Below the pieces are notes generated by a model that ran no database searches, was not told the origin of the DNA, and saw only the letters and a list, made by a program, of their open reading frames with translations. The position numbers and the translations under genes were made by a program. 64,000 bases of DNA from assembly GCA_002345825.1 (NCBI GenBank), contig DDWD01000212.1, positions 3,778-67,777 on the forward strand, in the 5' to 3' direction. Of the stretch, positions 1-43,828 are shown one piece after another (position 1 is the first letter of the stretch; each line of letters starts with the position of its first letter). This DNA is from Bacteroidales bacterium UBA2295 (GTDB lineage Bacteria > Bacteroidota > Bacteroidia > Bacteroidales > Tenuifilaceae).

Positions 1-975
1 GTAACAACTGGCTAGAGGCGCATTAAATTAACCCGTCAGGGTGCGAAGCTCCTGACGGCGTTAACGGAGCACCAAATAAAAAACGAGGGCTGGGTCTTGA
101 AGCGAACCTCTCAGCGCCGAGAAGCATGACAGCGTTCGAAAATATTCAACTTTCAATAAACGCTGACAGCTTGCTTGCCAATGGCAGGGCCTTGCGATGC
201 TGTCAGGTTTATCGGGGAGAGTTAACCCGTCAGCGTGCGCAGCTCCTGACGGCGTTAAAGGGAGTAGCAGACAGAATTAACGCTGACAGCTTGCTTGCCC
301 TTTGGCAGGACCTTGCGGCGCTGTCAGGTTTACAGAAAAAGTTAACCCGTAAGGGTGCGAAGCTCCTGACGGCGTTAAAGGGAGTAGCAGACAGAATTAA
401 CGCTGACAGCTTGCTTGCCCTTTGGCAGGACCTTACGGCGCTGTCAGGTTTATCGGGGGAGTTAACCCGTCAGCCCTGCCTGTCGCCAGACAGGGTGCGC
501 AGCTCCTGACGGCGTTAACTAGATGTCACTTTAAAAATGAGAGCTGGCTCTTAAGACGAACAGGTCAACGCTGGGAAGACCAGCCAAGGGCAGGTAAACT
601 GAAAGAGTTAACTACCATAGCACTTAATAAACGCTGACAGGGCCTTGCGGCGCTGTCTGGTTATTAACCCGTCAGCCCTGCCTGTCGCCAGACAGGGTGC
701 GTAGCTCCTGACGGCGTTAACTAGATGTCACTTTAAAAATGAGAGTTGGCTCTTAAGGCGACACTGTCAACGCTGGGAAGCCCTGCCATAAGGCAGGTAA
801 ACTGAAAGAGTTAGCTATCATAGCACTTAATAAACGCTGACAGGCCTTGCGGCGCTGTCAGGTTTACCGGGGAAGTTAACCCGTCAGCGTGCGTAGCTCC
901 AGACGGCGTTAATGGATTACCAAATAAAAGAACGAGGACTGGCTCTTGAAACGAACATATCAACGCTGTTAGCGT
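1..975. repeat. Mosaic REP/BIME-like array of palindromic units flanking the RAYT gene (left side)
   Basis: Hairpin A (AACGCTGACAG..CTGTCAGGTT) alternates with hairpin B (TTAACCCGTCAGG..CCTGACGGCGTTAA). The A+B composite recurs with an exact 120-bp period (250-289 identical to 370-409). A longer unit starting GGCGTTAACTAGATGTCAC occurs at 511 and 723. A third module, ACCAAATAAAA..CTTGAAGCGAAC, occurs at 71 and 919. Confidence 0.9.
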
Positions 976-979
976 TTTG

Positions 980-1642
980 CTAAATCAAGTCCTTTATCCT
1001 ATCTAAATCTTGCTCACATTGATGGAAGTATTTGAAGTTTGCCAAATCGCCAAACCACTCTATCACTTCTTGACGCATTAGGTTCGTCTGGTTTGGTGAG
1101 ATAATACCCTGGTACGAACTCCAAGGATACTTGCTCATATCATCGACAAAACCATGCTTTACCGGATTATGGTGAATGTAGTACACTAAATATCGCAGGT
1201 ATGTTTCATTCTCTACTCGAATCCGTTTAAATGGTCGCTCGAAAAGTGACCCGGTTCGGATGACTCTCCGATTAAAATGGCTGGCGTAGGCATTGAAAAG
1301 ATGAGAAAAATGCTTGGATGGGTTTGGAATCTTCTTTAAACTATCATTTGAGGTAGCAACCTCAAAACGACTGATTGTATCCCATTTAACCTCCTTAAAC
1401 CGTTTGGGGTTAATAGTGTTGTCTGAACCTGAATGTTTCTAAACAACATCTTCCTTAATCCTTACCAATAAATGAAAATGATTGCTCATTAGGCAGTAAG
1501 CAAAGGTATCGGCAATGGGGTCAATAAACGCTTTATAAAGTGAAAGAAAGTGGGTGTAATCATTAACACCATTAAAAAGGTTGGTAGAATTGATTCCACG
1601 GTTAAAGATATGATAGTAGGATCCAGGTTCCAACACTTCCAT
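980..1642 (-). pseudogene. REP-associated tyrosine transposase (RAYT, IS200/IS605 TnpA-like Y1 HUH enzyme) with a single in-frame TAG
   Basis: The minus-strand frame is continuous for 221 codons apart from TAG at 1441-1439. The N-terminal part has the HUH motif (SNHFHLLV). The central part reads GSLFERPFKRIRVENETYLRYL and the C-terminal part reads YYIHHNPVKHGFV. The gene is flanked on both sides by REP hairpins. Confidence 0.8.
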
Positions 1643-1726: not shown

Positions 1727-1915
1727 AACGCTGACAGTCCTTGCGGCGCTGTCAGGTTTACCGGGGAAGTTAACCCGTCAGGGTGCGAAGCTCCTGACGG
1801 CATTAACGGTGTACCAAATAAAAAAACGAGGACTGTGGTTCTTGAAGCGAACCTGTCAGGCTTTGCAGCGCTGACAGGTTTATCAGAGAGAGCTAACCCG
1901 TCAGCCCTGCTTGTT
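1727..1915. repeat. REP-like units, right side of RAYT (proximal block)
   Basis: Uses the same hairpin A and B modules and the ACCAAATAAAA module (1813) as block 1-975. The last hairpin B, with its inner CCCTGC..CAGGG hairpin, is interrupted at 1915/1916. Confidence 0.85.
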
Positions 1916-2239
1916 GGCGATAGCCGTCAAGCTAAGGATACAAAACAAACAAATATTAACAAATATTTCTAGTGGATTGTGCAGAATATGAATACCATAG
2001 CCCTCGTAGAGCCTGCCTGGCTGGCAGACAGGGGCATATAGCGATTGAAGAGATTAATGCAAATGATTTTAAGCGCTTCGTAGACCTGCCTGCCGGCAAA
2101 GGCAGGTGCGCAATAAGGGATAAGAAATCATAATATCTATTGCACACCCTACGGGGTGCTTTAGGTTTTGAAATTTAGTCCAATCGCTATCAACCCTCTA
2201 CGAGGGTATTGAAAATTGCTTAGCTTGACGGCTATGGCC
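1916..2239. mobile_element. MITE-like non-coding palindromic element (copy 1), nested inside a REP hairpin
   Basis: Terminal inverted repeats are GGCGATAGCCGTCAAGCTAAG (1916-1936) and CTTAGCTTGACGGCTATGGCC (2219-2239). The element is flanked by the direct repeat TGTTGGC (1912-1918 and 2240-2246). Inside are the inverted repeats CCCTCGTAGAG../..CCCTCTACGAGGG and ATAGCGAT/ATCGCTAT. It is homologous to 37513-37750 in the opposite orientation. Confidence 0.75.
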
Positions 2240-2335
2240 TGTTGGCAGTCAGGGTACGAAGCTCCTGACGGCGTTAACGGGAGTAGCAGACAGAATAAAC
2301 GCTGAAAGGGTCTGGCGGCGCTATCAGGTTTGTGG
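2240..2335. repeat. REP-like units, right side of RAYT (distal block)
   Basis: Contains the second half of the split hairpin (..GGCAGTCAGGGTACGAAGCTCCTGACGGCGTTAAC). This is followed by the GGGAGTAGCAGACAGAAT linker and a degenerate hairpin A. The block ends at the deoC stop codon. Confidence 0.8.
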
Positions 2336-37284: not shown

Positions 37285-37512
37285 GCTACAAAATTTTGAT
37301 GCAAAGATAGGAAATATGATAGGGCAAATGCATTGGAAATTAGTTAAAATAATCTATCTGATTCACTGTCCCGCTAGGAACATAATATGTGTAAAACTTA
37401 AATACAGAATAATAACCCCGTGACGGAATATTCTTTACTTGCTACAGGCAAGACTTAGTCGTAAAATTAAACACAATTTTAATGTATATAAAACCGATAA
37501 TTTCTTTATTCA

Positions 37513-37750
37513 CACCCTCGTAGAGGGTATATAGCGATAGGGTATTGATTGCGAAGGTAAAGCACCCCGTGGGGGTGCAATAGATATCAGCAGCCCATAT
37601 TGCGCATCTACGAAGCGCTAAATTATTTTCATTAATTTATTCAATCGCTATGTGCCCTCTACGAGGGCTATAGTATTAATATTCTGATCAAACCAATAAA
37701 TAAATTGTTAATATTTGTTTGTTTTGTATTCTTATCTTGACGGCTATGGC
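37513..37750. mobile_element. MITE-like palindromic element, copy 2 (inverted relative to copy 1; left boundary unclear, may extend to ~37441)
   Basis: Collinear with the reverse complement of 1916-2205. Shared blocks include CCCTCGTAGAGGGTATATAGCGAT, GCACCCCGTGGGGGTGCAATAGATAT, GCGCATCTACGAAGCGC, CAATCGCTATGTGCCCTCTACGAGGGCTATAG, and TTAATATTTGTTTGTTTTGTATTCTTATCTTGACGGCTATGGC. Confidence 0.7.
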
Positions 37751-41231: not shown

Positions 41232-41990
41232 TTAAATACATTTAAACATATGGTTTAACTTGCTATCTATTAAATGCTCTTCACCAAGCTGTTTAATAAT
41301 ATCGTTCTTATACTTCCAGGTAATAGAAATACATTGGCATTTATCCCCAATCAATTTAAGTAGGTGAATGATGTGGGTTAGATAATTGAGATTATTCTCA
41401 TCAATTGAGTGGATAAAAAAATCGACGTTAAAACTAATTGCCTCAGGCTCATTATACCTTAACATCTCAAGCCACAAAACTAGGGGATAAAAATACACCC
41501 AGGGCTCGCTGTGAACACAGCTGCCCTCTATGATTATATCAACAGAATCGTCGTAGTAAACAAGAGGAGCAGCGTCTGTCATTATATGACTAAACGTACT
41601 AGGTAATTGCTTTTCAGTAATATTGAAGGGGAATTTAAAAAATTCAGCAAACTCTTCGCCATCTTCTTTGATATCAATATCATCTGCAAAGTAGTGCCAG
41701 TTTACAACTACTTGCTTACCCTTGTCATGCTGTTTCTCGAGCAGCTTAAAAAGATCATAAAAAGATTTGGACGAAGAGTTGCCAAAATACATCATAGAAA
41801 AACTAACCTCGAGGCTAATCCCACCCGAAAAAAAATATTTATCAACCCAATTTATAAGTGCCGTGTAGAATAAAGTAGGGTTTTCGGGTATTGAAATCCC
41901 CGACACCTGCACAGTACCCTTTTGGGAGTCTGCAACTATAAGCGGTTCTCGATTTGAGGGGGAGTTTATTAGGTTTTCCATTTTGCTCAC
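41232..41990 (-). CDS. Tandem DUF1987 (SiaC-like) domain protein
   Basis: The first half matches the DUF1987 pattern as I remember it: VSGISIPENPTLFYTALINWVDKY, then YFGNSSSKSFYDLFKLLE, then VVVNWHY. The second half repeats the fold pattern (IIEGSCVHSEPWVYFYPLVLWLEML..ISITWKY) but has no SSS motif. Confidence 0.6.
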   Translation of the reverse strand: MSKMENLINSPSNREPLIVADSQKGTVQVSGISIPENPTLFYTALINWVDKYFFSGGISLEVSFSMMYFGNSSSKSFYDLFKLLEKQHDKGKQVVVNWHYFADDIDIKEDGEEFAEFFKFPFNITEKQLPSTFSHIMTDAAPLVYYDDSVDIIIEGSCVHSEPWVYFYPLVLWLEMLRYNEPEAISFNVDFFIHSIDENNLNYLTHIIHLLKLIGDKCQCISITWKYKNDIIKQLGEEHLIDSKLNHMFKCI

Positions 41991-42197: not shown

Positions 42198-42226
42198 GGC
42201 AGGCGAGCACTCGGTGCTCGCCTGCC
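42198..42226 (-). terminator. 13-bp perfect hairpin, terminator of the caspase operon
   Basis: GGCAGGCGAGCAC-TCG-GTGCTCGCCTGCC, 30 nt downstream of the lipoprotein stop codon. T-rich tracts lie on both sides, so it may act in both directions. Confidence 0.7.
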
Positions 42227-42256
42227 TGTAGTTTTTAAGTAAATTTATTGAGTGAA

Positions 42257-43828
42257 CTAAATATCCTCATTGGGATCGTAAACCCAAAAATCCTTTTTGT
42301 AACCAACGGGTTGGGTGTACTCTGCTCCCGTTCCAAAATAGCCTTTACCATTTAGAGCAACGCCAATGGCTGAGTACCGACTCCCTGGCTTCATGTATGT
42401 TTTTTGTGTCCATGTATTATCTGCAGGCGAAAACTCCCACAAATCGTAATAGGGTGTTGATCCTGTGTATCCAGAGCCAACATAAGCCTTGTCGCCAATA
42501 ACAAAGCTTATAGCTGAGAACCTTCTATTATCCCAGGTAGGTTCAATACCTGCTGCTTCGGCCCAGGTATCGGCACTAGGATTATACTCCCAAAATTCAG
42601 CTCTCACTTCGTTGTTATAACCAGTACCAATGTACCCCTTGCCATTAACAGCAAAGCCAACCGCTTTGTATATTAAGCCGCCGCCATAAGATTGCTTCTG
42701 AGTCCACACATCGGTTTGGGAGTCGTACTCCCAAAAGTCAGGATTAAACAGATTACTTACCCCCATTCCAACGTACCCCTTATCACCAATGGCAAAGGCA
42801 GCAGCGCCGTCTCTAGGAGAGCCACCAAAATCGGCTATTCGTGCCCACTGGCCAGTTGTTGGGTTGTACGCCCAAAAATCCTTGCTATCGCCCCCTTGAA
42901 TTGCACCTGTGCCCACATATCCCTTGCCGTTAATTACAAATGCAACTGCTGTGTGACGGGGTTCTCCGGGGAAGTCTGCAATTCTGCTCCACTGGTCTGT
43001 ATCGGGGTTGTACTCCCAAAAATCGGAAGTGAACTCATTGCTTGGGGTTGTTCCGGTACCAACATATATCCTATTGCCAATGGCAAAGGACACTGCTGCG
43101 CTCCTCTCCTCGCCACCAAAATCGGCTAGCTGCGTCCAAGGATCAGGAAGGGTTCTAAATTCAAGTTCTTGGCCATAAGAAGTTCCTATGGAATTTGTTG
43201 CGTAGGCTCGGGTGAAGTAAACTGTATTGGGCAGCAAATTAGATAGGTTACAAGTAAACTCATAGTCTTCCCACTCATTAAGTTCTCCTTGTATCTTAAA
43301 ATCATCAATCGTTGGATTAGGTGTAGTGGCCCAACAAACTCCCGCTGTGGTGGTTGCACCGCCATCATATAGCAACTTTCCGCCAAAAACTGCGGAATTT
43401 GTGGTTATGTTTTCAACAGCAGCGAAACTCTGTACAATAGGTGCTCCAACCACAGTTGAGAACATCTTTTCGTCTCCGTAGTACACACCCCTATCGGTCT
43501 GTGCAAAAACCCGATAGTTATAATGGGTATTTGATGAAAGGCCATTTGCCTGAACAGTAAAAGTAGAATTACCCAATGAACCCTCAACATATCCATCAAC
43601 TATTGTTGGCATAGGATGTGGACTAAAACAGATGCCCAATTTCTGGATCGTTGCACCACCATCGGAAACTAATTCGCCCTTAAGGGTTGCCGATTCGGCA
43701 TTTATTTCTGTTGCCTCAAGGGTGCGCAGCTCGGGATCTGTTAAAACCTCGTCAGAACAAGAAATTACAACCGCTAGGCACACTAGGACAACTGCAAACA
43801 CTTTGAATATATTTTGAATAGATCTCAT
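42257..43828 (-). CDS. Lipoprotein with two Ig/FN3-like repeats and a six-bladed Kelch-like beta-propeller
   Basis: Lipobox (..VVISC SDE). Two repeats of about 90 aa (ATLKGELVSDGGATIQ.. and AVFGGKLLYDGGATTT..). Six repeats of the pattern W..IADFGG..R..AV.F.I..KGYVGTG....DFWEYNP. Confidence 0.75.
   Translation of the reverse strand: MRSIQNIFKVFAVVLVCLAVVISCSDEVLTDPELRTLEATEINAESATLKGELVSDGGATIQKLGICFSPHPMPTIVDGYVEGSLGNSTFTVQANGLSSNTHYNYRVFAQTDRGVYYGDEKMFSTVVGAPIVQSFAAVENITTNSAVFGGKLLYDGGATTTAGVCWATTPNPTIDDFKIQGELNEWEDYEFTCNLSNLLPNTVYFTRAYATNSIGTSYGQELEFRTLPDPWTQLADFGGEERSAAVSFAIGNRIYVGTGTTPSNEFTSDFWEYNPDTDQWSRIADFPGEPRHTAVAFVINGKGYVGTGAIQGGDSKDFWAYNPTTGQWARIADFGGSPRDGAAAFAIGDKGYVGMGVSNLFNPDFWEYDSQTDVWTQKQSYGGGLIYKAVGFAVNGKGYIGTGYNNEVRAEFWEYNPSADTWAEAAGIEPTWDNRRFSAISFVIGDKAYVGSGYTGSTPYYDLWEFSPADNTWTQKTYMKPGSRYSAIGVALNGKGYFGTGAEYTQPVGYKKDFWVYDPNEDI

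Follow-up and report, generated by a model that had tools for sequence, protein, structure and literature searches.

Short REP-like palindromic units at the hairpin tips of a miniature transposable element in Tenuifilaceae-like Bacteroidales

A 64,000-nt stretch of the genome of Bacteroidales bacterium UBA2295 (contig DDWD01000212.1, positions 3,778 to 67,777, of assembly GCA_002345825.1; hereafter, the window) contains two copies of a noncoding miniature inverted-repeat transposable element (MITE), and the first copy carries two short palindromic segments at points where the second is contiguous. How did palindromes of 21 and 22 nt come to lie so precisely inside an otherwise shared element? 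We think it probable that both segments are members of a family of mobile palindromic units of 19–31 nt, similar to repetitive extragenic palindromic (REP) sequences, which enter the tips of hairpins, are moved by a transposase of the Y1 (HUH) type, and are then redistributed together with the MITE. The units enter as precise blocks without target duplication, and their ends lie at the foot of their own stem.

We read the two window copies directly and aligned copy 1 pairwise with the reverse complement of copy 2, using MAFFT. The two are copies of a single MITE of ~290 nt with ~80% mutual identity, and the reading and the alignment both bear out the two extra segments described in the initial annotation of this DNA, together with the contiguous points opposite them. 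Copy 2, which was there taken to be a stretch at 37513-37750, needs correction: it is full length, with a decayed right terminal repeat and no truncation at 37513, and it is flanked by the duplication CTTGCCTG. The element copies and the inserts are as follows:

1919..2236, + strand: MITE copy 1, family 1, short subfamily, with terminal inverted repeats (G/C)ATAGCCGTCAAGCTAAG .. CTTAGCTTGACGGCTATG and a core of four GC-rich triloop hairpins, H1 to H4
37456..37748, − strand: MITE copy 2, family 1, long subfamily, with all four hairpin sites empty and a degenerate right terminal repeat
2011..2031, + strand: insert 1, a 21-nt mini-hairpin of type A, GCCTGCCTGGCTGGCAGACAG (or, with a 1-nt shift, in a CCTG..CAGG frame), at site s1
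2085..2106, + strand: insert 2, a 22-nt mini-hairpin of type E, CCTGCCTGCCGGCAAAGGCAGG, at site s2, exactly between CGTAGA and TGCGC in hairpin H2

Insert 1 is positioned 2–3 nt 3′ of the GTA triloop of H1, in the context CCCTCGTAGA - GCCTGCCTGGCTGGCAGACAG - GGGCATATAGCGAT, and its junction slides by one or two G; the junction of insert 2, which reads GCGCTTCGTAGA - CCTGCCTGCCGGCAAAGGCAGG - TGCGCAATA, is unambiguous. Target duplications and terminal inverted repeats are absent at both. The s2 junction, TAGA^CCTG..CAGG^TGCG (with ^ marking the bond), is exact, unduplicated, and without microhomology, which disfavors both slippage and microhomology-primed copying at this position; junctions at the other sites are ambiguous by at most 2 nt. 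We can also set chance aside: other genomes have the identical 21-mer at this site, and the 22-mer reappears unchanged as a free-standing array repeat at three other loci (L032, L069, and L087). The type A unit of s1 is found in mirror orientation as well, within H4 of other MITE copies.

We searched for further copies in species-representative genomes and Joint Genome Institute (JGI) metagenomes, using patterns that allow 0–30 nt at site 1. This yielded 83 real loci—six matches in GC-rich genomes were discarded as chance—from Perlabentimonas gracilis M08_MB, the Tenuifilaceae metagenome-assembled genome (MAG) BF1_30, MAGs labeled Rikenellaceae or Bacteroidales, and a series of related metagenomes. 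The mapped set comprises 85 MITE copies (55 distinct copies or alleles, in two families), which were placed on uninserted backbones so that the filled or empty state of each site could be read from the alignment-based map. The element has the properties of a MITE: it is 270–330 nt long and present in many copies, has terminal inverted repeats of 17–18 bp and duplications of ~9–11 bp, and lacks coding capacity, its open reading frames (ORFs) of 53 and 63 aa being spurious. Family 1 has the terminal repeats CATAGCCGTCAAGCTAAG..CTTAGCTTGACGGCTATG; the ends of family 2 differ (TTAGAAACTGTTTAAGTT..), and its core is the same as that of family 1, with a closing stem, ATAGCGAT/ATCGCTAT, and the four GC-rich hairpins H1 to H4, most of which have GTA or TAC triloops (the host hairpin H2 has the sequence AAGCGCTTCGTAGATGCGCAATA). 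Across the 85 copies, CCTG..CAGG units of 19–31 nt are confined to four positions in family 1 and three in family 2:

Family 1, site s1: in H1, CGTAGA^GGG; unit of 21 or 25 nt; filled in 10/42 distinct copies or alleles
Family 1, site s2: in H2, CGTAGA^TGCGC; unit of 19 nt, or 22 nt in the window; filled in 13/39
Family 1, site s3: in H3, C(T/C)ACGG^GGTGC; unit of 27 or 31 nt; filled in 27/37
Family 1, site s4: in H4, ACC^CTCTACG; mirror image of the s1 unit; filled in 16/35
Family 2: s1 filled in 2/13; s2 (after AGCACC^) filled in 3/13; s3 (after CTACGA^) filled in 3/12

Every one of these sites is within ~3 nt of the loop of its host hairpin, and filled and empty sites combine in many patterns among the copies. 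The AT-rich linkers of the MITE contain no unit in any of the 85 copies. The four tip windows of ~9 nt each make up ~12% of the backbone, and by simple arithmetic, four of four independent sites would fall within them by chance with a probability of ~2e-4.

The units are not restricted to the MITE. They form a family, known from a clade of Tenuifilaceae-like Bacteroidales, whose members start with CCTG and end with CAGG, with arms that are essentially (CCTG)n / (CAGG)n, stems of 5–9 bp, and stability z values from −0.6 to −3.3. Both dispersed and clustered, they are found in 86 distinct contexts in ~0.69 Mb of DNA, made up of the window and related loci; in the window, those with the family stem CCTG[CT]C..G[GA]CAGG are all within the MITE or within an array of larger REP hairpins, of types A and B. 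This array surrounds a gene for a transposase resembling the REP-associated tyrosine transposases (RAYTs). Plain REP B hairpins, with the 12-nt loop GGTGCGAAGCTC, number 15 instances, and the optional inserts that had been proposed for the loops of both REP types are indeed present:

475..494, + strand: mini-hairpin CCTGCCTGTCGCCAGACAGG in a REP B loop, with the same stem, C/A mismatch included, as the unit at 2011-2031
677..696, + strand: the same 20-nt unit, CCTGCCTGTCGCCAGACAGG, in a second REP B hairpin
290..310, + strand: degenerate unit CTTGCTTGCCCTTTGGCAGGA in a REP hairpin A loop; also at 410-430, with a variant at 170-188
980..1642, − strand: RAYT-like Y1 transposase gene with one in-frame TAA, and REP hairpins A and B on both sides
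1897..2272, + strand: REP hairpin B (CCCGTCAG .. CCTGACGGC), whose loop holds a split mini-hairpin
1905..1918, + strand: left half of this mini-hairpin, CCCTGCTTGTTGGC, which is split by MITE copy 1 and holds the left target-duplication copy, CTTGTTGGC
2237..2254, + strand: right half of the split mini-hairpin, GCCTGTTGGCAGTCAGGG, which holds the right target-duplication copy, CCTGTTGGC

The stem with its C/A mismatch is common to the s1 unit and the REP B unit, and the MITE inserts and the REP-loop inserts belong to one family, as had been suggested. Copy 1 is thus nested three deep, with two mini-units inside a MITE, the MITE inside a mini-unit, and that mini-unit inside REP B. The targets of the units are the triloop hairpins of the MITE, the loops of the REPs that flank the RAYT gene, and the centers of other units, and the outcome is a set of nested, "fractal" palindromes. 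For compound hairpins such as GCCTGCCTTTGC-CCTGCCTTTGC-CCTGCCTTTGCCGGCAGGCAGG-CGGCAGGCAGG.., the simplest reading is a unit centered in a unit centered in a unit; growth of the arms from target-duplication footprints is less parsimonious. We also considered that the units are excision footprints of the MITE, and rejected this, as their sequences are not derived from the local flanks.

Could the hairpins instead be ancestral to the element, with copy 2 and the other empty copies having lost them by palindrome-stimulated deletion? Palindromes are deletion-prone, there is 1–2 nt of G/GG microhomology at the s1, s3, and s4 junctions, and s3 is filled in most family 1 copies. The two window sites, however, are mostly empty, s1 in 32 of 42 copies and s2 in 26 of 39; in the P. 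gracilis isolate, s1, s2, and s4 are empty in all copies and s3 is filled in one only (L025); and family 2 is empty in 9–11 of the 12–13 copies at each site, most of its copies being empty everywhere. A majority of copies filled at both window sites had been named at the outset as the outcome that would speak for deletion. The majority is empty, which favors insertion relative to an empty ancestral state, and because that state is the commonest at s1 and s2, copy 2 did not simply lose its units. Ancestral loss also sits poorly with the s2 junction without microhomology, with the unrelated unit types at the same site, and with the REP A and B hairpins of the orthologous RAYT locus, which are uniformly empty; we consider it very improbable.

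A single bond can hold different units. In 12 other copies, the s2 bond that holds the 22-mer in the window holds a different 19-nt unit, CCTGCCTGC[C/T/A]GCAGGC[T/A]GG. Family 2 s2 holds either a 23-mer or a 27-mer, and in one copy (L041) the 27-mer exactly reverse-complements the copy's own s3 unit. Such different units at one bond, in both families, argue for repeated hits or replacement. The 27-mer, or a one-base variant of it, also lies in three dissimilar flanks, which are CCCTACGG^GGTGC at family 1 s3, CTCTACGA^GGCGC at family 2 s3, and AGCACC^CCAGAG at family 2 s2. A second alternative is that the palindromes are made in place from neighboring sequence, by slippage or local template switching at stalled hairpins, with nothing brought in from other sites. 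This would fit two length variants suggestive of tetranucleotide slippage, one of type A at 25 nt (CTGG added) and one of type C at 31 nt (CTGC added), and local template switching is a likely source of such variants. It would also fit the hairpin CCTGCCATAAGGCAGG at 782-797, which corresponds to CCAGCCAAGGGCAGG in the paralogous unit at 574-600 and to CCCTACTTAGGGCAGG in the sister lineage (L090 2765-2785), from which it seemingly evolved in place; this comparison indicates that some CCTGCC hairpins arise or are homogenized in place rather than by insertion. As an account of the inserts themselves, local templating is hardly credible, since they are unrelated to their flanks and have identical counterparts, down to the C/A stem mismatch, at different loci and in different genomes, and a CCTGCC.. 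sequence beside TAGA^TGCG cannot be templated locally.

Comparisons between strains, suggested as a check in the initial annotation, reveal unit presence and absence at orthologous sites. At one locus, the P. gracilis isolate (L025) is without an s2 unit and two metagenome strains (L042 and L056) have the 19-nt unit there; the rest of the MITE differs by 1–3 single-nucleotide polymorphisms, and the flanking gene is ~93% identical. As the closest paralogues are without the s2 unit, its presence in L042 and L056 is most readily explained as a gain. At a second locus, L074 has the same flanks as L075 and L077, and their MITEs are 100% identical apart from exactly a 27-nt s3 unit and a 21-nt s4 unit. 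In an unbiased all-against-all census, 12 of 20 clean indels of 12–60 nt are CCTG..CAGG units, and the other 8 are tandem duplications.

Exchange between copies is visible in the same data: L066/L067 and L084 are identical over the left two-thirds of the MITE, differ in their s2 and s4 states, and have right thirds of different subfamilies, which shows that MITE copies also recombine or undergo gene conversion with one another. All of the variation could then stem from a few ancient founding insertions, one at each MITE site, that have since only been shuffled, by MITE transposition, by conversion or recombination, and by precise loss, with no ongoing mobility of the units. This would suit the mosaic allele, the presence of mostly one unit type per site, and the scatter of filled and empty states over near-identical backbones, which recombination predicts. 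It is at odds with the L042 and L056 alleles, in which donor-specific differences as near as ~13–15 nt from the unit were not co-converted relative to L025, with the two different units at the same bond at family 1 s2 and at family 2 s2, and with the one 27-mer in nonhomologous flanks of two MITE families. Furthermore, ~8–10 nonhomologous founding insertions at hairpin tips are needed here, as they are under every alternative that we consider, so that an origin from mobile units is not replaced. We regard shuffling without continued mobility as unlikely.

Two other differences between alleles were seen at these loci. An insertion of ~145–160 nt at backbone position 108 of a family 2 MITE (L029 and L043), absent from the orthologous allele L041, contains small palindromes and may itself be a further nested element. 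The hairpin arrays are directly adjoined by long tandem arrays of 7-nt (GTTCAGT / GTTCGGT / GTTCAGA) and 8-nt (GATTGGTT) repeats, whose length varies between alleles (L074-L077; L051 2740-2780 and 4450-4560; L011 4280-4350).

The positions of the inserts could alternatively reflect tolerance of an RNA fold, if the inserts were selected "expansion segments" of a functional RNA made from the MITE core. The core fold is conserved, with compensatory changes between the two families in H2, H3, and H4 (double changes in 8/34 predicted pairs), and all of the inserts extend existing helices. Yet neither the MITE core nor the units match an Rfam family (for the whole window at the gathering threshold and for clean MITE copies at E<=1), the AT-rich linkers, which should tolerate insertions, carry no unit, and the same units lie in REP loops and inside one another, where no such RNA exists. 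Because this explanation also provides no origin for the units at the DNA level, we think it highly unlikely. We note, separately, that the covarying core is common to two MITE families with unrelated terminal repeats (window copies; L019 5664-5953; family 2 L004), and that it may represent either a structured RNA or a signal in single-stranded DNA.

If the units enter hairpin tips, what do they recognize there? Insertion 3′ of CGTAGA, proposed in the initial annotation, holds at s1, s2, and s4 (at s4 on the opposite strand), and it does not extend to a general target. GTAGA-flanked contexts account for 10 of the 86, all of them within MITE hairpins H1, H2, and H4, and the 5′ flanks elsewhere are diverse: GTCAG(C) or GACAG in REP loops, TTTGC(C) for a unit in a unit, and CTACGG / CTACGA at s3. 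At H3 the unit occupies the opposite side of the GTA/TAC loop, after CTACGG^ (AGCACC^CCGTAG on the opposite strand), and the family 2 s2 unit follows AGCACC^ with no GTAG nearby. The feature common to the sites is structural, namely the tip of a preexisting hairpin, within ~3 nt of the loop edge. A polarity rule, by which the CCTGCCTG end is always beside the host loop, fits the seven MITE sites and was dropped, as it fails for REP B.

The units are themselves preferred targets, both of the family 1 MITE and of an IS110-family element. Most loci of the family 1 MITE, both window copies included, show a ~10-bp duplication that spans the loop of a CCTG..CAGG hairpin (for example, GCTTGCCAGC, GCTGGCAAGC, and TCCAAAGGGC; loci include L025 3780-4130, L021 7400-7760, and window 1905-2254), and this is a hairpin-targeting MITE. 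An element of the IS110 family of insertion sequences (ISs), coding for a 332-aa DEDD transposase (Pfam PF01548 and PF02371), splits a 19-nt s2 unit at L051 2797-4452 (also at L035 484-2140), with ..CCTGCCTGCCG before the IS and CAGGCTGG after it. At L064 484-1310, an element of ~480 nt with family 1 terminal repeats and a different interior lies within the s2 unit of a MITE, with the duplication GCCTGCAGC, an arrangement of MITE inside unit inside MITE. As these insertions show, the units serve as landing pads in the way that REPs do. Among the related loci, no autonomous partner of the family 1 MITE was found. Two candidates were rejected: an extra terminal repeat in L073 is a one-mismatch coincidence, the adjoining 507-aa DDE_Tnp_1 transposase having different ends, and the 1.6-kb "long" MITE copies (L035 and L051) are in fact MITEs interrupted by the IS110 element.

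A RAYT-type Y1 transposase had been put forward as the mobilizing enzyme, and it is a sensible candidate in that its homologues are flanked by CCTGNC..GNCAGG hairpins, the window gene itself having an in-frame stop. The window gene matches NCBIfam REP_Tyr_transpos with an E value of 2.5e-13 and 50 bits, under the 80-bit cutoff. An intact orthologue, P0001 (220 aa), with 84% identity, is encoded at L090 3001-3663, in the syntenic dtd-mazG-deoC-RAYT-polA locus of a sister lineage. There, the REP A and B hairpins are plain, with no inserts and no MITE, from which we conclude that the window array is a derived, expanded, and nested version. RAYT homologues with 57–61% identity have flanking hairpin stems CCTGACAGG/CCTGTCAGG or CCTGTCTG..CAGGCAGG; these more distant homologues are flanked by hairpins with CCTGNCAGG stems and, in L096 and L102, by CCTGTCTG..CAGGCAGG / CCTGCCTGACGCAGGCAGG. 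The outer stem CCTGNC..GNCAGG is therefore common to the mini-units and to hairpins beside the RAYT homologues of this clade. We also observe that a CGTC-type hairpin, CCCGTCAGG..CCTGACGGCG, flanks the RAYT gene both in the window (980-1642, − strand) and at L090 3001-3663.

RAYTs cleave and rejoin REP DNA in vitro. Mobilization of the units by a RAYT (HUH) enzyme is plausible from the sequence comparisons, with the lack of duplications, the s2 junction without microhomology, the structure-defined ends, and the stem in common with the RAYT-flanking REPs all favoring it. We propose that a RAYT-clade transposase of the Y1 (HUH) type, whose gene lies beside the REP arrays, would cut a unit at the foot of its stem and insert it as a single strand, by cut-and-paste or copy-and-paste, at the exposed tip of an extruded hairpin. 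From then on the unit would be redistributed as the MITE transposes, as copies undergo gene conversion with one another, and as units are now and then precisely lost, giving the mosaic of filled and empty sites.

Several observations weigh against this interpretation. The inserts are palindromic, as first described, but their folding is modest rather than strong: as isolated single strands, insert 2 has a z of −2.3 relative to shuffles and insert 1 a z of −0.6, with 46 of 200 composition-matched shuffles equally stable. The 1–2 nt of microhomology at s3 and at s1/s4 permits slippage loss, and gene conversion could explain many of the presence/absence differences, the orthologous ones included, without new insertions. 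The sites do not have a single fixed 5′ target motif, unlike those of IS200/IS605 elements. The RAYT gene in the window is interrupted, its immediate flanks are REP A and B rather than mini-units, and tblastn with the RAYT over ~680 kb of related loci did not find a second Y1 gene. Sampling was centered on the MITE, and sites outside it are under-sampled.

Two other window features touch on the REP array or resemble the units. An ORF at 126-509 (127 aa), which runs through the REP array, is almost certainly spurious. A 13-bp perfect inverted repeat at 42198-42229, GGCAGGCGAGCAC-TCG-GTGCTCGCCTGCC, lies between the minus-strand ORFs 41232-41990 and 42257-43828; it contains the words GGCAGG/CCTGCC in reverse order and probably acts as a terminator instead of belonging to the unit family.

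A bolder proposal, which we offer tentatively and with some doubt, is that the units may be currently active mobile DNAs of 19–27 nt, the smallest class known in Bacteroidota, moved as single strands by a RAYT, with targets (the tips of any extruded GC-rich hairpins) chosen by shape and not by sequence, and with recursive entry into REPs, MITEs, and one another. If so, they would keep making landing pads on which IS110 and the hairpin-seeking MITE could settle, in what would be a "palindrome ecosystem" that reinforces itself, and they would offer a direct handle on how REPs spread; to our knowledge, a single REP has seldom been caught in the act of entering a new site. Structure-directed targeting, if it holds, would be a new mode of target selection for REP-type elements. 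The ~290-nt MITE backbone is a natural reporter, in which gain and loss of units can be followed with single-base precision at four defined hairpin tips, across many copies and coexisting strains. With strains close to a cultured isolate, P. gracilis M08_MB, and an intact candidate enzyme, P0001, the system is experimentally approachable. The palindromes, the MITE, and IS110 build on one another to give deeply nested repeat regions that break assemblies and may reshape intergenic regulation. The phenomenon has precedents, and this example is unusually clean and apparently still changing in natural populations.

How do these units compare with known systems? Systems of REPs or REPINs with Y1 (HUH) RAYTs include the BIMEs of E. 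coli, the REPINs of Pseudomonas, and REPs whose stem has a conserved GTAG or CGTC tag on one side (PMC3116915, PMC3733652). REPs are described as palindromes of 20–40 bp, often associated with RAYTs (PMC3733652), and at 19–31 nt the window units are not, as had been supposed, much smaller than usual REPs. Like REPs, they are short, imperfect, extragenic palindromes, arrayed beside a RAYT-like gene and used as IS targets, as REPs are according to work that PMC3116915 cites. Other palindromes are already known to contain certain REP families, among them GTAG-15 of A. variabilis, GTAG-23 of T. roseum, and CGTC-1 of H. neapolitanus (PMC3733652); nothing specific on nested REPs in Bacteroidetes turned up in a search of the literature. 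The window units have neither a GTAG nor a CGTC tag of their own, with GTAGA present only where a host hairpin supplies it, and they are single, recursively nested, and precisely present or absent at MITE hairpin tips, in contrast to REP doublets forming hairpins (REPINs), the replicative doublets of Pseudomonas (PMC3116915). CGTC-type REPs are reported to lack a dedicated transposase (PMC3733652), whereas the larger host REP B carries CGTC and a CGTC-type hairpin flanks the RAYT described here.

Among known cases of very small units within palindromes, the closest is SDR5, which is precisely inserted in the highly iterated palindrome HIP1 of Nostocaceae (Elhai et al. 2008, as described in PMC4390886 and PMC5861425, and also cited in PMC3116915). 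It is one of the small dispersed repeats (SDRs) of cyanobacteria, modules whose mobility was deduced from precise insertion. As far as the PMC4390886 description goes, the two share a module of ~20–30 nt, precise insertion in structured sequence, and empty counterparts. They differ in host (Bacteroidota rather than Cyanobacteria), in sequence, the window units being (CCTG)n..(CAGG)n, in target (a hairpin tip rather than the fixed octamer of SDRs), and in that the window units have a linked RAYT clade, whose REPs have a stem in common with them, as a candidate enzyme. SDRs are reported to be 21–27 nt long and to lie inside MITEs as well.

IS200/IS605 elements such as IS608 and ISDra2 transpose as single strands by "peel and paste" (PMC6006769). 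The window units resemble them in having no target duplication or terminal inverted repeats and in having hairpin-defined ends, and a single-stranded tip would be a natural target. IS200/IS605 elements, however, insert 3′ of a fixed tetra- or pentanucleotide, have separate left and right ends, and carry a transposase gene, whereas a window unit is one noncoding hairpin without a single target motif. A further parallel is with ISs that use REPs as targets (Tobes and Pareja 2006) and with IS1397, which inserts into palindromic units (both as listed among the references of PMC3116915). The family 1 MITE, with its ~10-bp duplication, and the IS110-family element similarly enter the loop or center of CCTG..CAGG units; these two are consumers of the units and not units themselves.

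Mobile GC clusters of fungal mitochondria are short, GC-rich palindromes that spread in AT-rich DNA and structured RNA genes. Their likeness to the window units, and that of the related double-hairpin elements, is by analogy only, as they are organellar, differ in sequence, and have reported target duplications. In size, palindromy, clustering, and use as IS targets, the window units fit the definition of REPs; they are a known kind of element with new features rather than a new kind.

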